Shown here: positions 8,315 through 16,273 of the stretch, one piece after another
Numbering within the stretch: position 1 is the first letter of the stretch
Layout of the letters: each line of letters begins with the position of its first letter
Origin: a virus
Lineage: Duplodnaviria > Caudoviricetes
IMG/VR virus record: IMGVR_UViG_3300032305_000216
Location: 1-24,093 of that record
Reading direction: 5' to 3' (one strand)
Length of the DNA stretch: 24,093 nucleotides
Position numbers and translations under genes: made by a program
Notes under the pieces: model-generated
Told to the model about the DNA's origin: nothing
The model's input: the letters and a program-made list of their open reading frames with translations, nothing else
Databases searched by the model: none

Positions 8315-8733
8315 TATTTATCTATTTGCTTTAGCTTATTAATTGCCCATTCAATACCTGAAGTACCACCCCAACAATCCCACATCAAGCCACCACAACC
8401 TTCTGAATATGGTACATCTTTACTTTGTTGATGCCTTTTAAATGATGCCATCCTAGCTATAGTATCCCTAGATATGTTTTCTTTATTCGCTAATTGATTT
8501 GCCCTTGCTTTACCTACTGCAGTTCCACAATCACCCCAACCATTTTCATCTGCCCATTTTAATGCTCTCTTTGCATTGTTACTAGCAGATTCAGGATAAT
8601 CATTATAAGTTTCCTCATATTTACCACTAGCTATAATTGCTGCCCATACTTTAGCAGCTTTTTCTTCTGTGTCATAAACGCAACCACCTGTACCAATTCT
8701 GTACTTTCCGTTGCTACATTTGTATATCGGCAT
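8314..8733 (-). CDS. Hypothetical protein with a 'YNDYPESASNNAKRAL...WDCWGG' domain
   Basis: Domain recalled from head-region proteins of aquatic phages, preceded by a short 'MPIYKCSNGKYRIG' module; function unknown. Confidence 0.6.
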   Translation of the reverse strand: MPIYKCSNGKYRIGTGGCVYDTEEKAAKVWAAIIASGKYEETYNDYPESASNNAKRALKWADENGWGDCGTAVGKARANQLANKENISRDTIARMASFKRHQQSKDVPYSEGCGGLMWDCWGGTSGIEWAINKLKQIDK

Positions 8734-9724
8734 TACCTATCAATTTATTATAAATAGCAAATCTCTTGTTATTTATGGTGTGCAGGTTAAAGTTAGTATT
8801 ACAGTAATCAAATAGCTTCTGACCATATTCTACCCTAGCTGCTTCATCAAAGGTTAGTAGCTTAATCCATTTGTACCAATCCTGTTGGTTGTTTACATAG
8901 CATACAGGCATATTTTTATAAGGGTGTACGTTGCTAACTATAGCAGGGTTTTTCTTTGATGCAGTTTCTAATACCTTTAGGTTAGATTTCATAGCACTAA
9001 ACTTATTATCTATTAAAGGAATGATGCTAATGTCAGAATCAGCATAAGCACCCATATACTTGCTTACTTCTGCATAGTCATATATAGTAGGGTTCAGCTT
9101 TAATCCGTTTGTAAATACTCCAATCATTCTATCCCATAAATGTTTCTCACCTAAGTTGTATCCTGCTATAACTGTTCTTACAGGGAAGTTAATCTTCTTC
9201 ATTGGATTTCTAAGAATGTCTAAATCAGGAACGTGAGTGCCTGAACCTGACCAAAATAATCTAACCATATTAGATTCTATTTTGTTATCTTGAAACTGCT
9301 CCTCACCATAAGGTAAAGCATTTGGTAATATTTCTACATTGGTATTGTACTTGTATATTTCTTCTGCTAGTCTTTCGTGCGTACAGGTGCATAGGTCTGC
9401 CACCTTCATATACTCTATAATAATTTCTGTAATGTTACTATCTCTGTATCTTTCTGAAAGTATGTGAGTAGGTGGTAAAATCCAATAATCATCATTATCT
9501 ACAATCAATTTAAAGTTATACTTTAACTTCATCTCAACTAATACCTTTGCATCTGTTGAAGATAAAAATCTATTAAATATTACTATATCGTAATTATTAT
9601 CAAATACTGCTTCATTTATTGTATCTGTTATCATACAATAATCTTTGCGCATATTTACTAATGGCATCATTATTCTATGATACCCAACACCACTAAACTT
9701 ACTTGTTATTGCTAGTATTCTCAT
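8714..9724 (-). CDS. GT-B fold glycosyltransferase (GT4-like)
   Basis: 'SGVGYHRIMMP', 'DNDDYW', 'ILPNA', 'WSGSGTH', 'DISIIPL...KSNLKVLE'. Confidence 0.8.
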   Translation of the reverse strand: MRILAITSKFSGVGYHRIMMPLVNMRKDYCMITDTINEAVFDNNYDIVIFNRFLSSTDAKVLVEMKLKYNFKLIVDNDDYWILPPTHILSERYRDSNITEIIIEYMKVADLCTCTHERLAEEIYKYNTNVEILPNALPYGEEQFQDNKIESNMVRLFWSGSGTHVPDLDILRNPMKKINFPVRTVIAGYNLGEKHLWDRMIGVFTNGLKLNPTIYDYAEVSKYMGAYADSDISIIPLIDNKFSAMKSNLKVLETASKKNPAIVSNVHPYKNMPVCYVNNQQDWYKWIKLLTFDEAARVEYGQKLFDYCNTNFNLHTINNKRFAIYNKLIGNADIQM

Positions 9725-10302
9725 AATGGAATATAAAATGATTTAGTTCCGTTTGAGTATTCAGATACGTTTTGATTATGTAAATCCCAAGTTTTTTTAA
9801 CTAAGTCCATTTTATTATACCCATAAGCATCTACGCCATTCTGTTCAATATGAGTAGCTTTTATATTTGGTATATACTTTGTATGCAATCCTGATGCTCT
9901 ACATCTAGTACAGTAGTCTAAGTCTATTGCTCCGTATGGGTCTAGTTCCTGATTAAATGCTCCAAGTCTTTTTATTGTTTCTGCGCTAATAGTAAAGTTC
10001 CCAATCAGGTCTAATGAATCACCGTTAAAGCCTCCTAATGGAATTGAACAAATACCTACGCTTATATCTTGCATATAGTCATTTCTAATCTGCAACCAAT
10101 TATCAGGCTCTTGTATATCATTACCCATAATCGTTACAAAGTCAATATTATTTAACTGCCTTAATCCTTTATTGATTGCATTAGATATTCCTGTTTCATT
10201 TACAATGCTTATTAAGTCAATATGCTTACCTGCATTTTTAATGTTATGAAACAATGTATCTATGTTTCTATTTTGGTAGTTTAGATATATTATTGCGTTC
10301 AT
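9721..10302 (-). CDS. GT-A fold glycosyltransferase (GT2-like)
   Basis: 'GISNAINKGL', degenerate DxD ('GND'), 'LGAFNQELDPYGAIDLDYCTR...G'. Confidence 0.75.
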   Translation of the reverse strand: MNAIIYLNYQNRNIDTLFHNIKNAGKHIDLISIVNETGISNAINKGLRQLNNIDFVTIMGNDIQEPDNWLQIRNDYMQDISVGICSIPLGGFNGDSLDLIGNFTISAETIKRLGAFNQELDPYGAIDLDYCTRCRASGLHTKYIPNIKATHIEQNGVDAYGYNKMDLVKKTWDLHNQNVSEYSNGTKSFYIPL

Positions 10303-10781
10303 CGTGGCTTGTTTTCTCCTAATTTTATTGCAGGAACTCCTGCATATTTTGTATATTGTTCTGATTCCCCTTTAAAAAATGCACTTGCTCCAATCATACA
10401 ACCTTCTAATATAACTGAAAATTGATGCAATACTGCGTTCAACCCTATGTTACATTTATCATTTATGATAGAATGACCACCAATCTTTGCACCACAACTG
10501 ATTGTAACTTTATTATCTATAATACAATCGTGTCCTATATGTGCGTGTTTCATAATAAAACAATCATTGCCTATATAAGTATTAGTTTCAGTTCCTGCAT
10601 CAATAGTAACTAACCCTGTAATTATATTGTTATTACCTATAAAAACTTTTCCTTTTGTTTTATCCCAATACTTTTTGTGTTCAGCAGGGTCGCCTATAAT
10701 ACAATAAGCACCTATATAATTGTTATCACCTAGTGTAACATTGTCTCCTATAATCGCAGTTGGATGTATAAAATTAGCCAT
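10299..10781 (-). CDS. LpxA-like left-handed beta-helix acyltransferase
   Basis: Hexapeptide repeats with 'IHPTAII', 'IIGDPAEHKKY', 'AHIGHDC', 'VLHQF', 'YAGVPA'. ATG at 10781 preferred; lacks the LpxA C-terminal helical domain. Confidence 0.8.
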   Translation of the reverse strand: MANFIHPTAIIGDNVTLGDNNYIGAYCIIGDPAEHKKYWDKTKGKVFIGNNNIITGLVTIDAGTETNTYIGNDCFIMKHAHIGHDCIIDNKVTISCGAKIGGHSIINDKCNIGLNAVLHQFSVILEGCMIGASAFFKGESEQYTKYAGVPAIKLGENKPR

Positions 10782-11046
10782 TTGTTTTTGGTTTGCGACC
10801 ACGCTTTTTTGGTTCTAAAAGGTTTTCTATTGGTAAACTATTATAGTATTTGTACAATCTAACTACCATATCCATTCTACAGTTACCACACCATATAGTT
10901 AAAATAAAGTTAGGGTCTATATATTTTCTATATATTGCCTCATAGGTTTTCATTATAGATAAATCCAAGTTCCTAAGATAACCACTTTGTGATGTCTCGT
11001 AATTATTGTAATGCTCTTTTAAATATAATCTGTCTACTAATTCCAT
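10774..11046 (-). CDS. Hypothetical protein with CxxC and basic tail
   Basis: 'WCGNCRMD' and C-terminal 'PKKRGRKPK'. Confidence 0.65.
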   Translation of the reverse strand: MELVDRLYLKEHYNNYETSQSGYLRNLDLSIMKTYEAIYRKYIDPNFILTIWCGNCRMDMVVRLYKYYNSLPIENLLEPKKRGRKPKTNG

Positions 11047-12048: not shown

Positions 12049-12206
12049 AGTAATTCGTAAAATTGTTTTTTAAATAATAATCTATTTGTGCCATCAATGG
12101 CATCCTGTCTAGTTGGGTAGCAGTCAAAAAAGTTAATAGTATAGCAATATTTTACTGTACTATAGTGTGTATACTTAACTTGATAGACCTTCAAAGTATT
12201 TAACAA
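12024..12206 (-). CDS. Small hypothetical protein
   Basis: Fills the gap between replication genes and VRR-NUC; only TTG starts, so the start is uncertain. Confidence 0.4.
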   Translation of the reverse strand: MLNTLKVYQVKYTHYSTVKYCYTINFFDCYPTRQDAIDGTNRLLFKKQFYELLWTYRQTT

Positions 12207-12915
12207 GTGCTAATTTTTTACATTGTGTATCTACAAAATCATTGTCTTTAATTGATTGTCTAAAATTCTTTGCATCTATCCCATACAATTTATTCATTTT
12301 TTGAAGGTTATCTTCTCTAACAATCTTTATAATTTCTAACATTTCGTGTTCCTGAAACTTTAATTTTCCCTGCTTTATCAAAATTGCAAATACCTTATCA
12401 GCATTAAATACCCTGTTAAAGTCATTTTTAGCCGAATTAAGCCACTCTTTCTTAGTAAATGATACAATGTCATCATCAGATAATTTAGGTGGTTCTATTT
12501 CGTTTACAATAGGTTTTATCATTTTTCTTACTTCTAGTGCTTTTTTTGTATAGGCTGCCATAACTTGACCAATAAATTTTGGACTAAACTTTTCATAGTG
12601 TTCTGTGCTACAATCTAACTTACCCTGTACTGCCATTTTAAAAGCTAGTCTAAACTCCTCAACTGTAAAAAATGGATAGCTAGTCCTAATAAAATCTTCA
12701 ATTACAATCATTTCCTGTGTATCAGGATACTTTGTAAATCCTAGTAAAGTAAAGATATATGCTAAGTTTTCTTTTAGTGTTACAGGAGAAACTAGATTTA
12801 GCTTACTACCTTTAAATGCTTCAGCTATAGCATTATCAACTATGTACCCACTTTGCAAGGGCATCCATTCGTTCTTTGCTTGTGGCAGTTGGGTTAAATG
12901 TTTTTGAATTTCCAT
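12175..12915 (-). CDS. Putative replication accessory protein (helicase-loader position)
   Basis: Directly follows and overlaps the initiator, like lambda O/P. Function inferred from position only. Confidence 0.5.
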   Translation of the reverse strand: MEIQKHLTQLPQAKNEWMPLQSGYIVDNAIAEAFKGSKLNLVSPVTLKENLAYIFTLLGFTKYPDTQEMIVIEDFIRTSYPFFTVEEFRLAFKMAVQGKLDCSTEHYEKFSPKFIGQVMAAYTKKALEVRKMIKPIVNEIEPPKLSDDDIVSFTKKEWLNSAKNDFNRVFNADKVFAILIKQGKLKFQEHEMLEIIKIVREDNLQKMNKLYGIDAKNFRQSIKDNDFVDTQCKKLALVKYFEGLSS

Positions 12916-13471
12916 ATCTTAGTTTGTTTTTAGTCCAAGTATTAATTCTTCTTTTTACATCAAAGAACTTTTCTAGTTCATAACGTAATTTACCATTTTT
13001 ATTTGGTTCACACCAATATTCTACAAATTCTGTAAATGAATCACCTAAAATTTCTTCATACTCTTTTATATTATTTATAAATAAATCTTTAGTATTTACA
13101 TTTATATTTACATTTTCCATATGACCTATCATATGTGTGGTCATATGACCTACTTCTTTTTCTTTGTTTTTAGTATATTGATTTTTACCTGAAACATTGT
13201 TGCGCCTAGATTCCGTGAAAGTTTTCCTTCTTTCTTTTTCTAGGTCTAACCTTTCATTATACCATAGACCATCGGCATCTTTTATAAATTTGTCTTGTAT
13301 CTTGACCCACGTTTGACCAACCGTTTGACCTATCATATGTGTGGTCATATGACCTCTATTAAATTGTAACATTAGTAGTTCCATATATGCTCCTTTTTCC
13401 TCAAAGGTCATACCCATAGTTCCCCCTATGTAATCATTAGGGTAAAATAAAAATGCAGGGTCTTTTGACAT
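12836..13471 (-). CDS. Replication initiator, DUF1376/YdaU-like N-terminus
   Basis: 'MSKDPAFLFYPNDYIGGTMGMTFEEKGAYMELLMLQF' start, internal iteron-like repeats, C-terminal 'FVEYWCEPNKNGKLRYELEKFFDVKRRINTW'. Confidence 0.8.
   Translation of the reverse strand: MSKDPAFLFYPNDYIGGTMGMTFEEKGAYMELLMLQFNRGHMTTHMIGQTVGQTWVKIQDKFIKDADGLWYNERLDLEKERRKTFTESRRNNVSGKNQYTKNKEKEVGHMTTHMIGHMENVNINVNTKDLFINNIKEYEEILGDSFTEFVEYWCEPNKNGKLRYELEKFFDVKRRINTWTKNKLRYGNSKTFNPTATSKERMDALAKWVHS
13118..13355. repeat. Iteron-like repeats, probable replication origin
   Basis: Exact 30-bp repeat TGACCTATCATATGTGTGGTCATATGACCT at 13122-13151 and 13326-13355; CATATG/TGACC at 12-bp period; adjacent AT-rich tract at about 13060-13117. 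Confidence 0.75.
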
Positions 13472-13482
13472 AAAATAAAAAT

Positions 13483-13561
13483 GGGGTTCAGATTCCCTGC
13501 TAGTCGCATTAGCAGTTCATCATCCCCCCAATATTGTTAATAAACTAAATGCGACTTAGTT
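13483..13561 (-). ncRNA. Candidate cis-regulatory RNA (two hairpins with complementary loops) in the initiator leader
   Basis: AACUAA-GUCGCAU-UUAGUU (13561-13543) and CUGCUA-AUGCGAC-UAGCAG (13515-13497); the loops are exact reverse complements. Confidence 0.6.
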
Positions 13562-13566
13562 CTTGA

Positions 13567-13995
13567 TTATTTTGTAGACAAATATAAAGCATATTTATCC
13601 ATTTCCTCACAAAGTTGTTCTATTTTTTCTTTAAACCAATACTCTGTGTGCATAATATCCCTACATTTAGTTATAGAATATAATACTGTTGTATGGTCTT
13701 TTACACCAATATATGATGTAATTTCTGATAAACTCAACCTTGTGTACATTCTCAACATATAAGCTGCTGCCTGTCTGCCAAAGACTGTTTTTTGTTTTCT
13801 ATTGTTTGCTTTAATATCTGTACTAAAAACTTCTTCTACTAACTGAACAATCTTTTCAGGTTTGATATTTTTATCCGTAACAGGCATTCTAACATCATCT
13901 AAAATAACCCCTTCTTTAATTAATAGATTTTGAAGGTAGTTAAAGCTATCTTTTTGCATCACATATGCAGCGTATATTTCTTCTTTGTTTGTCAT
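13567..13995 (-). CDS. Stand-alone DnaA domain IV (Bac_DnaA_C)-like DNA-binding protein
   Basis: 'RKQKTVFGRQAAAYMLRMYTRLSLSEITSYIGVKDHTTVLYS' matches the DnaA C-terminal signature (RQ..MYL...SL.EIG..F..DHTTV). Confidence 0.85.
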   Translation of the reverse strand: MTNKEEIYAAYVMQKDSFNYLQNLLIKEGVILDDVRMPVTDKNIKPEKIVQLVEEVFSTDIKANNRKQKTVFGRQAAAYMLRMYTRLSLSEITSYIGVKDHTTVLYSITKCRDIMHTEYWFKEKIEQLCEEMDKYALYLSTK

Positions 13996-15646: not shown

Positions 15647-15665
15647 AGTTTGTTTGTTTATAAAG

Positions 15666-15757
15666 CAAATCTACAGGCTTTAAACATACTATCCAACTTT
15701 TATGTACTAAATTTTTGAACTTTGTGATGAACGGTAAATAAGAATGATGAATGGTAT
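15666..15757 (-). promoter_or_regulatory. Leftward Bacteroidota promoter with phased upstream boxes
   Basis: Perfect -7 TAGATTTG (15673-15666), GTTG at 15697-15694, boxes at 15725-15737 and 15745-15757. Confidence 0.75.
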
Positions 15758-15770
15758 TTGTACATAAAAT

Positions 15771-15804
15771 TGTCCGATATTTTGTCCGGACAGAAAACAG
15801 GACA
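15771..15804. promoter_or_regulatory. Palindromic array TGTCC-N7-TGTCC|GGACA-N7-GGACA
   Basis: Four pentamers in mirror symmetry about 15787/15788, midway between two divergent promoters. Confidence 0.6.
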
Positions 15805-15822
15805 TACTAAAAAATTTAGTAA

Positions 15823-15892
15823 TTACCGTTTATCCTTAAATATTACCGTTTGTGTAATAAATTTGGATATGTTGTATATAAGTTGTATATTG
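15823..15892 (+). promoter_or_regulatory. Rightward promoter with phased TTACCGTTT boxes
   Basis: TTACCGTTT at 15823-15831 and 15843-15851; TTTG at 15862-15865; -7-like TATATTG at 15886-15892. Confidence 0.6.
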
Positions 15893-15970
15893 TATTATAA
15901 TTAAGAAGTTAATTATGCTCTTTGAAATAAACCAAAAAAGTGAGGCACACTATAAACTGCGAAACCAACT

Positions 15971-16273
15971 ATGATAAATCCATTTATCAAAATGCAAGTT
16001 AAAGACATCATTAGGCAACTACCAAAAGAATTACCTTTTGACCACCCTGATTTTTTTACTACTTATGAGTTAATGATTTACACAAACCAAGAAGATGGTG
16101 ATTGGGATTTAGAAGACTTTAGCCATTTTAAAGGTATGCGAGAATTAGACAAGGTAATTAAAAAAATTGATAATCAATATGGTGATAGATTAAACCACAT
16201 TGATTTTAAATGGTCAGAAGAAGAAGGTGAGTTTGACCAAATGACAATTTACGTTAGACCTGTAAAAAGGTAA
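15971..16273 (+). CDS. Acidic hypothetical protein, the only plus-strand gene
   Basis: Occupies otherwise empty space, with its own promoter and an AAACCAACT-ATG leader. Confidence 0.75.
   Translation: MINPFIKMQVKDIIRQLPKELPFDHPDFFTTYELMIYTNQEDGDWDLEDFSHFKGMRELDKVIKKIDNQYGDRLNHIDFKWSEEEGEFDQMTIYVRPVKR

Follow-up and report, generated by a model that had tools for sequence, protein, structure and literature searches.

A leader RNA with complementary hairpin loops at the head of replication genes in putative Bacteroidota phages

We describe a family of small leader RNAs, built from two hairpins with complementary loops, that was not found in Rfam or in the literature searched and that shows unusually clean covariation. 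The leader is almost certainly a real structured RNA, and it probably exerts cis control over the replication operon in some form. The form that we favour, judging from sequence and with a probability of about 0.5, is an attenuator that gates the operon and whose ON state would be a kiss between the two loops. The family suggests that Bacteroidota phages may gate replication by a 7-base kiss on a terminator-like hairpin, i.e. without antisense RNA or leader peptide.

Results

Architecture of the leader in the window

The whole stretch analysed here (the window) is a 24-kb virus record of 24,093 nucleotides, the genes of which lie nearly all on the minus strand. According to Pfam and PHROG, the minus-strand set includes an ERF annealing protein, a winged-helix protein, a DnaA C-terminal HTH protein, a DUF1376-like protein, a VRR-NUC nuclease, an HNH protein and a terminase. 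The leader occupies a gap of 95 nt (13472-13566, minus strand) between the ORF 13567-13995 (minus), which codes for a DnaA C-terminal helix-turn-helix (Pfam Bac_DnaA_C, E 8.6e-15), and the ORF 12836-13471 (minus, 211 aa), a predicted replication initiator with a DUF1376/YdaU-like N-terminus. The sequence-only reading had named the latter a DUF1376 initiator; a match to this family is indeed present (residues 9-45, E 3.4e-6), but with 27.8 bits it stays below the Pfam cut-off of 30.1 bits. Moreover, the ORF matches a PHROG of primosomal proteins (E 6e-9), and its close relatives bear the source name YdaU. We infer the role as replication initiator from the sub-threshold Pfam match, the PHROG primosomal match, the gene position and a 35-nt direct repeat within the gene, the two copies of which (13117-13151 and 13321-13355) are 94% alike, lie 204 nt apart, each contain the palindrome GGTCATATGACC and may represent origin iterons. 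The ORF that overlaps the end of the initiator gene (12175-12915, minus; PHROG of unknown function) is, by position, likely a replication partner of the initiator.

All elements of the leader are read on the minus strand. A -7 promoter box, TATATTTG (13579-13586), which matches the Bacteroidota primary-sigma consensus, sits within the last codons at the 3' end of the ORF 13567-13995, and the transcription start is predicted near 13574. The box is followed by hairpin P1 (13542-13562; arms 13556-13562 and 13542-13548, six Watson-Crick pairs plus a G-U pair) with loop L1, GUCGCAU (13549-13555), by an A/U-rich single-stranded linker (13531-13541) and by the long hairpin P2 (13482-13530), the predicted terminator stem. 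P2 consists of an outer stem (UGGGG, 13526-13530, and CCCCA, 13482-13486), a middle part with a 3-bp stem and a GAA/GGA internal loop, and a 6-bp inner stem (CUGCUA, 13510-13515, and UAGCAG, 13497-13502) that carries loop L2, AUGCGAC (13503-13509). The CCCC of the outer stem stops 11 nt 5' of the AUG (13469-13471) and is followed by AUUUUUAUUUU; the U-tract, UUUUUAUUUU (13472-13481), lies between P2 and the start codon. Two hairpins with exactly complementary 7-nt loops in the 95-nt gap, the second one inside an outer GGGG...CCCC stem about 11 nt before the AUG, had been proposed from the letters of the sequence, and all of these elements are present at coordinates that confirm the proposal. 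The promoter box and the 3-bp middle stem with its internal loop had been overlooked in that reading.

None of 3000 dinucleotide shuffles of the gap contained two stems of at least 6 bp together with at least 7 complementary loop bases. As a lax form of this test (stems 4, match 6) is passed by 257 of 3000 gap shuffles, only the strict form is informative; a kiss detector with the same lax settings, which responded to 35 of 61 leaders and 425 of 1220 shuffles, was rejected as too permissive and is not used as evidence. The folding energy of the gap is modest (z -2.17). Both loop 7-mers are unique within the window, where the covariance model finds one copy of the leader. The RNA data comprise seven short contigs from two runs with small shares, which may be DNA. 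One RNA-run contig (13423-13573), which may likewise be DNA, crosses the U-tract into the initiator gene and ends one base off the predicted start (contigs cannot show ends).

Covariation and loop codes across the family

Among 80 viral loci chosen by their initiator protein, the leader was found at the initiator in 31 and further upstream in three (34 of 80); 31 carried a sister design, two a third design, and in 13, some of which lack the upstream DNA, no leader was recognised. Counting the two sister designs, leaders are present in 67 of the 80 loci. A covariance model was built from 34 leaders and run on 97 of 111 loci picked by two other initiator proteins. In 80 metagenome loci, a second model returned 17 matches at E<=1, of which 14 were strong. 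Our set of 102 distinct leaders contains 12 loop codes, with L1 reading GUCGCAU in 34, GUCGGAU in 31, GUAGGAU in 12, GUUGCAG in 7, GUACGAG in 5 and the swapped AUGCGAC in 3; the two loops are swapped in L047 and L293. Before this count 17 candidates that failed the two-stem test were dropped, i.e. the diverged L014 and L015, the cut L215, the kiss-less L283, L309 and L310, the stemless L085, L101, L129 and L138, and L110, L124, L143, L163, L181, L183 and L190 with a short inner stem. Two opposite-strand reads were excluded as well.

As the 102 leaders are complementary by selection, we argue for complementarity from covariation, from a tree and from two scans, one with free loop positions and one based on the promoter. 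Model R1, to which alignment A2 was fitted, includes the nested stems and leaves out the kiss. The 49 distinct rows that entered the covariation analysis came from the run on the 97 loci, with relatives chosen for the most part by protein. All 315 cells of the loop-loop helix are Watson-Crick, and six of its seven pairs change on both sides, whereas slid controls are 38-45% paired; the claim that homologous leaders keep complementary, covarying loops is borne out, and the covariation excludes chance as the origin of the loop match in this family. Not one of the 82 rows with both loops is non-complementary, and the kiss contains no G-U pair. In the 49 rows, both sides also change in each of the 17 stem pairs, including 5/5 modelled pairs of P1, in which 98.3% of cells are paired, and the outer and inner stems of P2 are 99% paired and show compensatory changes. 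Read on the coding strand, the inner P2 stem holds 35 G-U and one A-C combination, which points to an element that acts as RNA of the coding strand.

On a tree of 93 leader scaffolds, from which the loops had been removed, the loop code switches at least 22 times. Leaving one position free per loop, a scan returned 86 distinct matches, complementary in 82 of 82 with the first stem (two of the 82 are the same element read on the other strand) and in two of four without it. A further scan, requiring only promoter and loops, returned 94 distinct matches: all eight that form two hairpins are complementary and carry U-tract and AUG, and among the other 86 complementarity occurs in 29.

Template switching can homogenise inverted repeats, but is an unlikely source of these loops, which match over seven bases, lie 40 nt apart and have non-complementary flanks. 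A box C/D or kink-turn element was also considered, as the window contains AUGAUGA...CUGA (weak SNORD43 match, E 7.9), and was rejected since this feature is not kept across the family.

Promoter, linker, P2 and U-tract

In 96 of 100 leaders, as compared to 7 of 599 coding windows, a TAnnTT(T/C)G box is found in the 45 nt that precede loop 1, and in 68 of the 96 leaders that bear it this -7 box is 8-10 nt away from loop 1. The Bacteroidota consensus of this box and its placement at -12 to -5 are given in PMC6847099 and PMC9723704 (both in part); such a placement would put the first RNA base at the foot of P1 in most members, whereas in the window it would lie roughly 12 nt before P1. The -33 element TTTG, at a distance of 15-24 nt, is present in only 29 of 95 leaders.

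The linker has a length of 11-15 nt in 96 of 102 leaders, commonly with the motif AACUUAUU or AACAAUAUU, and the P2 arms measure 19-21 nt in 101 of 102, i.e. P2 has a fixed height. Its internal loop is GAA/GGA in 49 and GAA/GAA in 24 leaders. In 92 of 102 leaders the loop-loop complementarity spans 7 bases and no more (9 in the window), which speaks against the extended duplex that had been put forward as a counterpart to the loop-loop contact. YUNR, the U-turn motif of antisense loops, was found in the recognition loops of 0/102 (L1) and 7/102 (L2) leaders.

In 91 of 102 leaders the 8 nt downstream of the last G-C pair contain at least six U, i.e. these 91 show a G/C stem directly followed by a U-tract, a trait of an intrinsic terminator. 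P2, which has a 20-nt interrupted arm and a loop far above 3-8 nt, was not listed by a simple terminator scan that allows loops of this size. Between -12 and -1 the leaders contain 9.2 T on average and 106 other gene starts of the same loci, called mechanically as ORF starts, contain 3.5; at least 9 T are found in 70% of the leaders and in none of the 106. These other starts are A-rich (mean 5.6 A at -12 to -1), and in Flavobacterium initiation is favoured by A at -3, -6, -12 and -13 and lowered by structure near the start codon (PMC6847099, in part). The AUG lies 9-13 nt past the P2 stem in 98 of 102 leaders, whichever gene comes next. From the promoter box and the A-rich starts of the other genes we infer Bacteroidota as the host phylum.

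Genes behind the leader

Compared by their first 90 residues, the downstream proteins fall into 15 clusters, which comprise DUF1376-like, HTH_36, Lin1244_N and DUF6291 families and several without Pfam match, together with N6/N4 and C5 methylases, an ATPase/acetyltransferase and proteins that we take to be HNH-like by their HNH motif. Near-identical leaders precede different families (e.g. in the window and in L142), and because different genes are swapped behind a near-identical leader, the leader does not have a specific coding sequence as its pairing partner. The leader is independent of the gene that comes after it. Where a gene has been inserted, the leader heads the inserted gene, 400-1000 nt before the initiator (L033, L066, L077, L205, L276, L289, L308). 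In L077 the inserted methylase gene abuts the initiator (stop 2499, start 2501), so that the displaced leaders are accounted for equally well by translational coupling and by attenuation. The tie to the initiator that had been suggested holds insofar as the leader stands at the head of replication genes, but it also heads methylase, HNH and ATPase/acetyltransferase genes.

Out of 40 whole records, 33 match the model, 31 of them once; of the misses, up to six or seven carry the sister design. Two phages, L057 and G174, carry two full leader copies each, with codes that differ within each phage. The second full leader of G174 (L585, G174:C1:2853-2949, minus) has a 13th code, GUACCAG/CUGGUAC, and lies far from the initiator, before a gene that presumably, by its motif, encodes an HNH-type endonuclease. 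As tyrosine integrase, resolvase and HTH_3 repressor (PF00589, PF00239, PF01381) were found in none of five near-complete relatives, these look lytic. The initiators themselves are mosaic: L201 and L202 share the C-terminal part with the window and carry another, Lin1244_N-like N-terminal domain, and in L237 (1039-1914) a T5orf172-like domain is inserted in the initiator.

Related designs

The sister leader (L017, L019, L046 and others) lies about 105 nt before the initiator start and is composed of a long first hairpin, a compact 11-bp terminator-like hairpin, a U-run and the AUG. In each of 21 distinct leaders of this design, a loop CUGCGAA, GUACGAA or CUACGAA is the complement of the second loop. 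A compact terminator stem with a short loop is a feature of the sister design, but not of P2. In the third design (L030, 2244-2503; L039, 1164-1423) UGCUAAA stands right after the promoter box and UUUAGCA in a 3'-side bulge of a long terminator-like stem, followed by U-tract and AUG. L283 (990-1090), L309 (992-1092) and L310 (915-1015) contain a hairpin, the same linker motif, a U-tract and an AUG without kissing loops; these hairpins precede ORFs of 23-38 codons.

Discussion

Among the options raised by the sequence-only reading an attenuator fits best. Transcription would start at the foot of P1, and L1, being made first, could catch L2 once the inner hairpin is made, at a time when the 3' strand of the outer stem has yet to emerge from the polymerase; the kiss would have this head start because P1 and the inner hairpin are completed ahead of that strand. 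The kiss would then strain or delay closure of the outer stem, the polymerase would read through the U-tract, and positions -12 and beyond would be open for the ribosome (ON). If no kiss is formed, the outer stem would close, transcription would end at the U-tract, and any read-through mRNA would be poorly translated (OFF). The balance may be tipped by folding kinetics, by a protein or by leader RNAs that have been released and share the loop code. The kiss, calculated as plain duplex, and the outer stem are of like strength (-8.8 and -9.7 kcal/mol), and a rough estimate based on general geometric constants suggests that a straight P2 needs 83-93 A (at 120-180 degrees) and that the linker reaches about 83-98 A; the TAR kissing complexes that have been solved show a bend of about 28-48 degrees (PMC2602780, in part). 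With like energies and a linker near full stretch at a straight P2, kiss and terminator stem would compete. The direction of the switch, i.e. the kiss as ON state, is proposed from this modelled geometry alone.

The attenuator is supported by the sister design, in which a 7-base kiss is combined with a compact 11-bp hairpin and a U-run, and by the G/C stem and U-tract in 91 of 102 leaders, U-rich where Flavobacterium favours A (PMC6847099, in part). Against it count the absence of P2 from the simple terminator list, the low frequency of TTTG at -33 and the finding of no alternative antiterminator helix in the leader. Moreover, P2 may be bent at its purine-rich internal loops, in which case the kiss could exist alongside a closed outer stem; this, too, would count against an attenuator.

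Control may instead be confined to translation, the kiss setting ribosome access to the first gene (IncI-like in effect), the downstream genes being coupled and the U-rich stretch serving as ribosome landing site. We regard this as somewhat unlikely: the position of P2, which stops 9-13 nt before the AUG with any gene behind, the lowered initiation in Flavobacterium if the start codon is structured (PMC6847099, in part) and the abutment of inserted genes and initiator would all suit such control, but the stretch is U-rich, unlike the A-rich starts of other genes in these loci, it directly adjoins the foot of a G/C stem, and the sister design bears a compact terminator-like hairpin. A static fold, in which kiss and P2 coexist and either protect the 5' end of the mRNA or fix a constant read-through of a leaky terminator without any switching, would leave unexplained why the leader mostly heads a replication operon and why its code has changed repeatedly. 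We consider it quite improbable, even though the fixed P2 height and the conserved purine-rich internal loop are compatible with a defined tertiary fold, no trigger was found, and the kiss-less hairpins of L283, L309 and L310 precede small genes with the same U-tract and AUG.

The leader might also be released as an RNA of about 90-100 nt, from promoter to U-tract, that pairs loop to loop between molecules to form dimers or rings or that acts on transcripts of co-infecting phages of the same code. It has its own promoter and a terminator-like end, the kiss in cis lies at the limit of the linker reach, 12 codes plus the 13th in L585 exist, the kiss contains no G-U, and both two-copy phages combine different codes. 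Yet the distance to the AUG is fixed, as for a cis element, differing codes in two of two phages are expected by chance given the many codes, and prophage immunity is improbable with no integrase, resolvase or repressor in 5/5 near-complete relatives; such a role is thus unlikely. The loops could finally act as DNA, either as two inverted operator half-sites or as a single-stranded fold near the origin, since they constitute a strictly Watson-Crick inverted repeat about 150 nt from the repeat inside the initiator gene. This is highly improbable in view of loop letters that vary freely and are even swapped (L047, L293), of stems that covary with the G-U excess on the transcribed strand, and of an element that lies between promoter and U-tract and is shifted 400-1000 nt from the initiator along with inserted genes.

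As an extension of the attenuator, the leader may be self-addressed, i.e. its own 5' loop would unlock the terminator and terminated leaders would act in trans on nascent leaders of the same code. Although we hold this for rather doubtful, it would provide feedback on replication-gene dose in lytic Bacteroidota phages that needs neither protein nor antisense RNA, and it would entail code-specific interference between co-infecting phages, with the loop codes as specificity groups.

The description of the leader as a new RNA family agrees with the searches in Rfam 15, which gave no match for the window at E<=5 (with the gathering score as criterion), two chance matches far below the cut-off for 13400-13650 (E 7.9-8.2) and no match at E<=1 for 14 related loci, some of which are without leader. 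No description of such a leader was found in the open full-text literature, most subscription papers being outside the search, and four supplementary files of Fremin 2023 (PMC10690425) contain no match, although its alignment archives may hold the motif.

In plasmids of the IncI/IncB type a translated leader peptide exposes the downstream pairing partner, and IncB pMU720 repA is a like system to ColIb-P9 repZ. The phage leader resembles ColIb-P9 (IncI-alpha) repZ in its loop-based pairing within the leader of an initiator mRNA; repZ translation depends on a leader pseudoknot, which is blocked by the Inc antisense RNA (PMC8383071, in part). In the phage leader, however, both partners are hairpin loops, the end is terminator-like, and there is no tie to one rep family. 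Nor does it have a conserved antisense promoter or leader ORF: eight of 102 leaders, taken with 90 nt more, contain a -7 box on the opposite strand, and so do 15 of 599 downstream windows (a test of the promoter motif only), and AUGs in 90 of 102 leaders share no place, frame or length, the AUG in L2 being lost in most loop codes. To our knowledge, Bacteroidota lack Shine-Dalgarno control.

With P4 immunity (CI RNA, seqA, seqC) and C4 RNA the leader would share the limitation of replication genes by RNA-RNA pairing and premature termination in a phage leader (PMC4825925, in part). It differs in having two complementary sites only, without an Rfam C4 match, and in the absence of integrase and repressor from the relatives tested; premature termination is suggested by its terminator-like anatomy. 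No third site is conserved, as extra 6-mers at -500 to +300 occur in 21 of 102 leaders and are scattered. Because a conserved antisense promoter, a leader peptide, a third site and an extended duplex were not found, we regard the leader as neither an IncI/IncB system, as the IncI/IncB-type mechanism proposed earlier would have it, nor a P4 system. The rep attenuators of the pT181/pIP501 type would be similar insofar as an RNA-RNA contact decides on premature termination ahead of rep (PMC8383071, in part). In the phage leader, by contrast, the partner lies in the same transcript, and we found no evidence of a counter-transcript. The kissing loops of ColE1 RNA I and RNA II also comprise seven bases. 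These are fully complementary hairpin loops in replication control as well (PMC2602780, in part), but RNA I and RNA II, which control a primer, are transcribed separately from one and the same DNA, whereas the two phage loops have separate coding sites and have to mutate together.

With its small size and its natural orthogonal codes, the leader lends itself to direct tests in Flavobacterium reporters. Should it act as a switch, it would provide tunable parts for a phylum that has few RNA tools, and replication-gene dosing in abundant uncultured phages would become a testable question.

Occurrence in genomes and further features of the window

In genome contigs 73 pattern matches were obtained, none of them a true member, and the best covariance-model match was non-complementary. 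Model R2 found no leader in 151 genomes from the phylum to which a Bacteroidetes MAG belongs, and the leader was found in 0 of 5 genomes that carry the initiator protein. Searches of GenBank gave one weak, unannotated phage match to the initiator protein and, with the leader as query, chance matches only.

Elsewhere in the window, the early genes are headed by an intergenic region (15647-15970) that contains a -7 box (15666-15673, minus) and the inverted repeat TGTCCG...CGGACA (15771-15792); the sole sizeable plus-strand ORF (15971-16273) diverges from this region. At 8714-10802 a hexapeptide acetyltransferase (Pfam) adjoins two ORFs without Pfam match, which in our view resemble glycosyltransferases, and this region is possibly a DNA or virion modification cluster.
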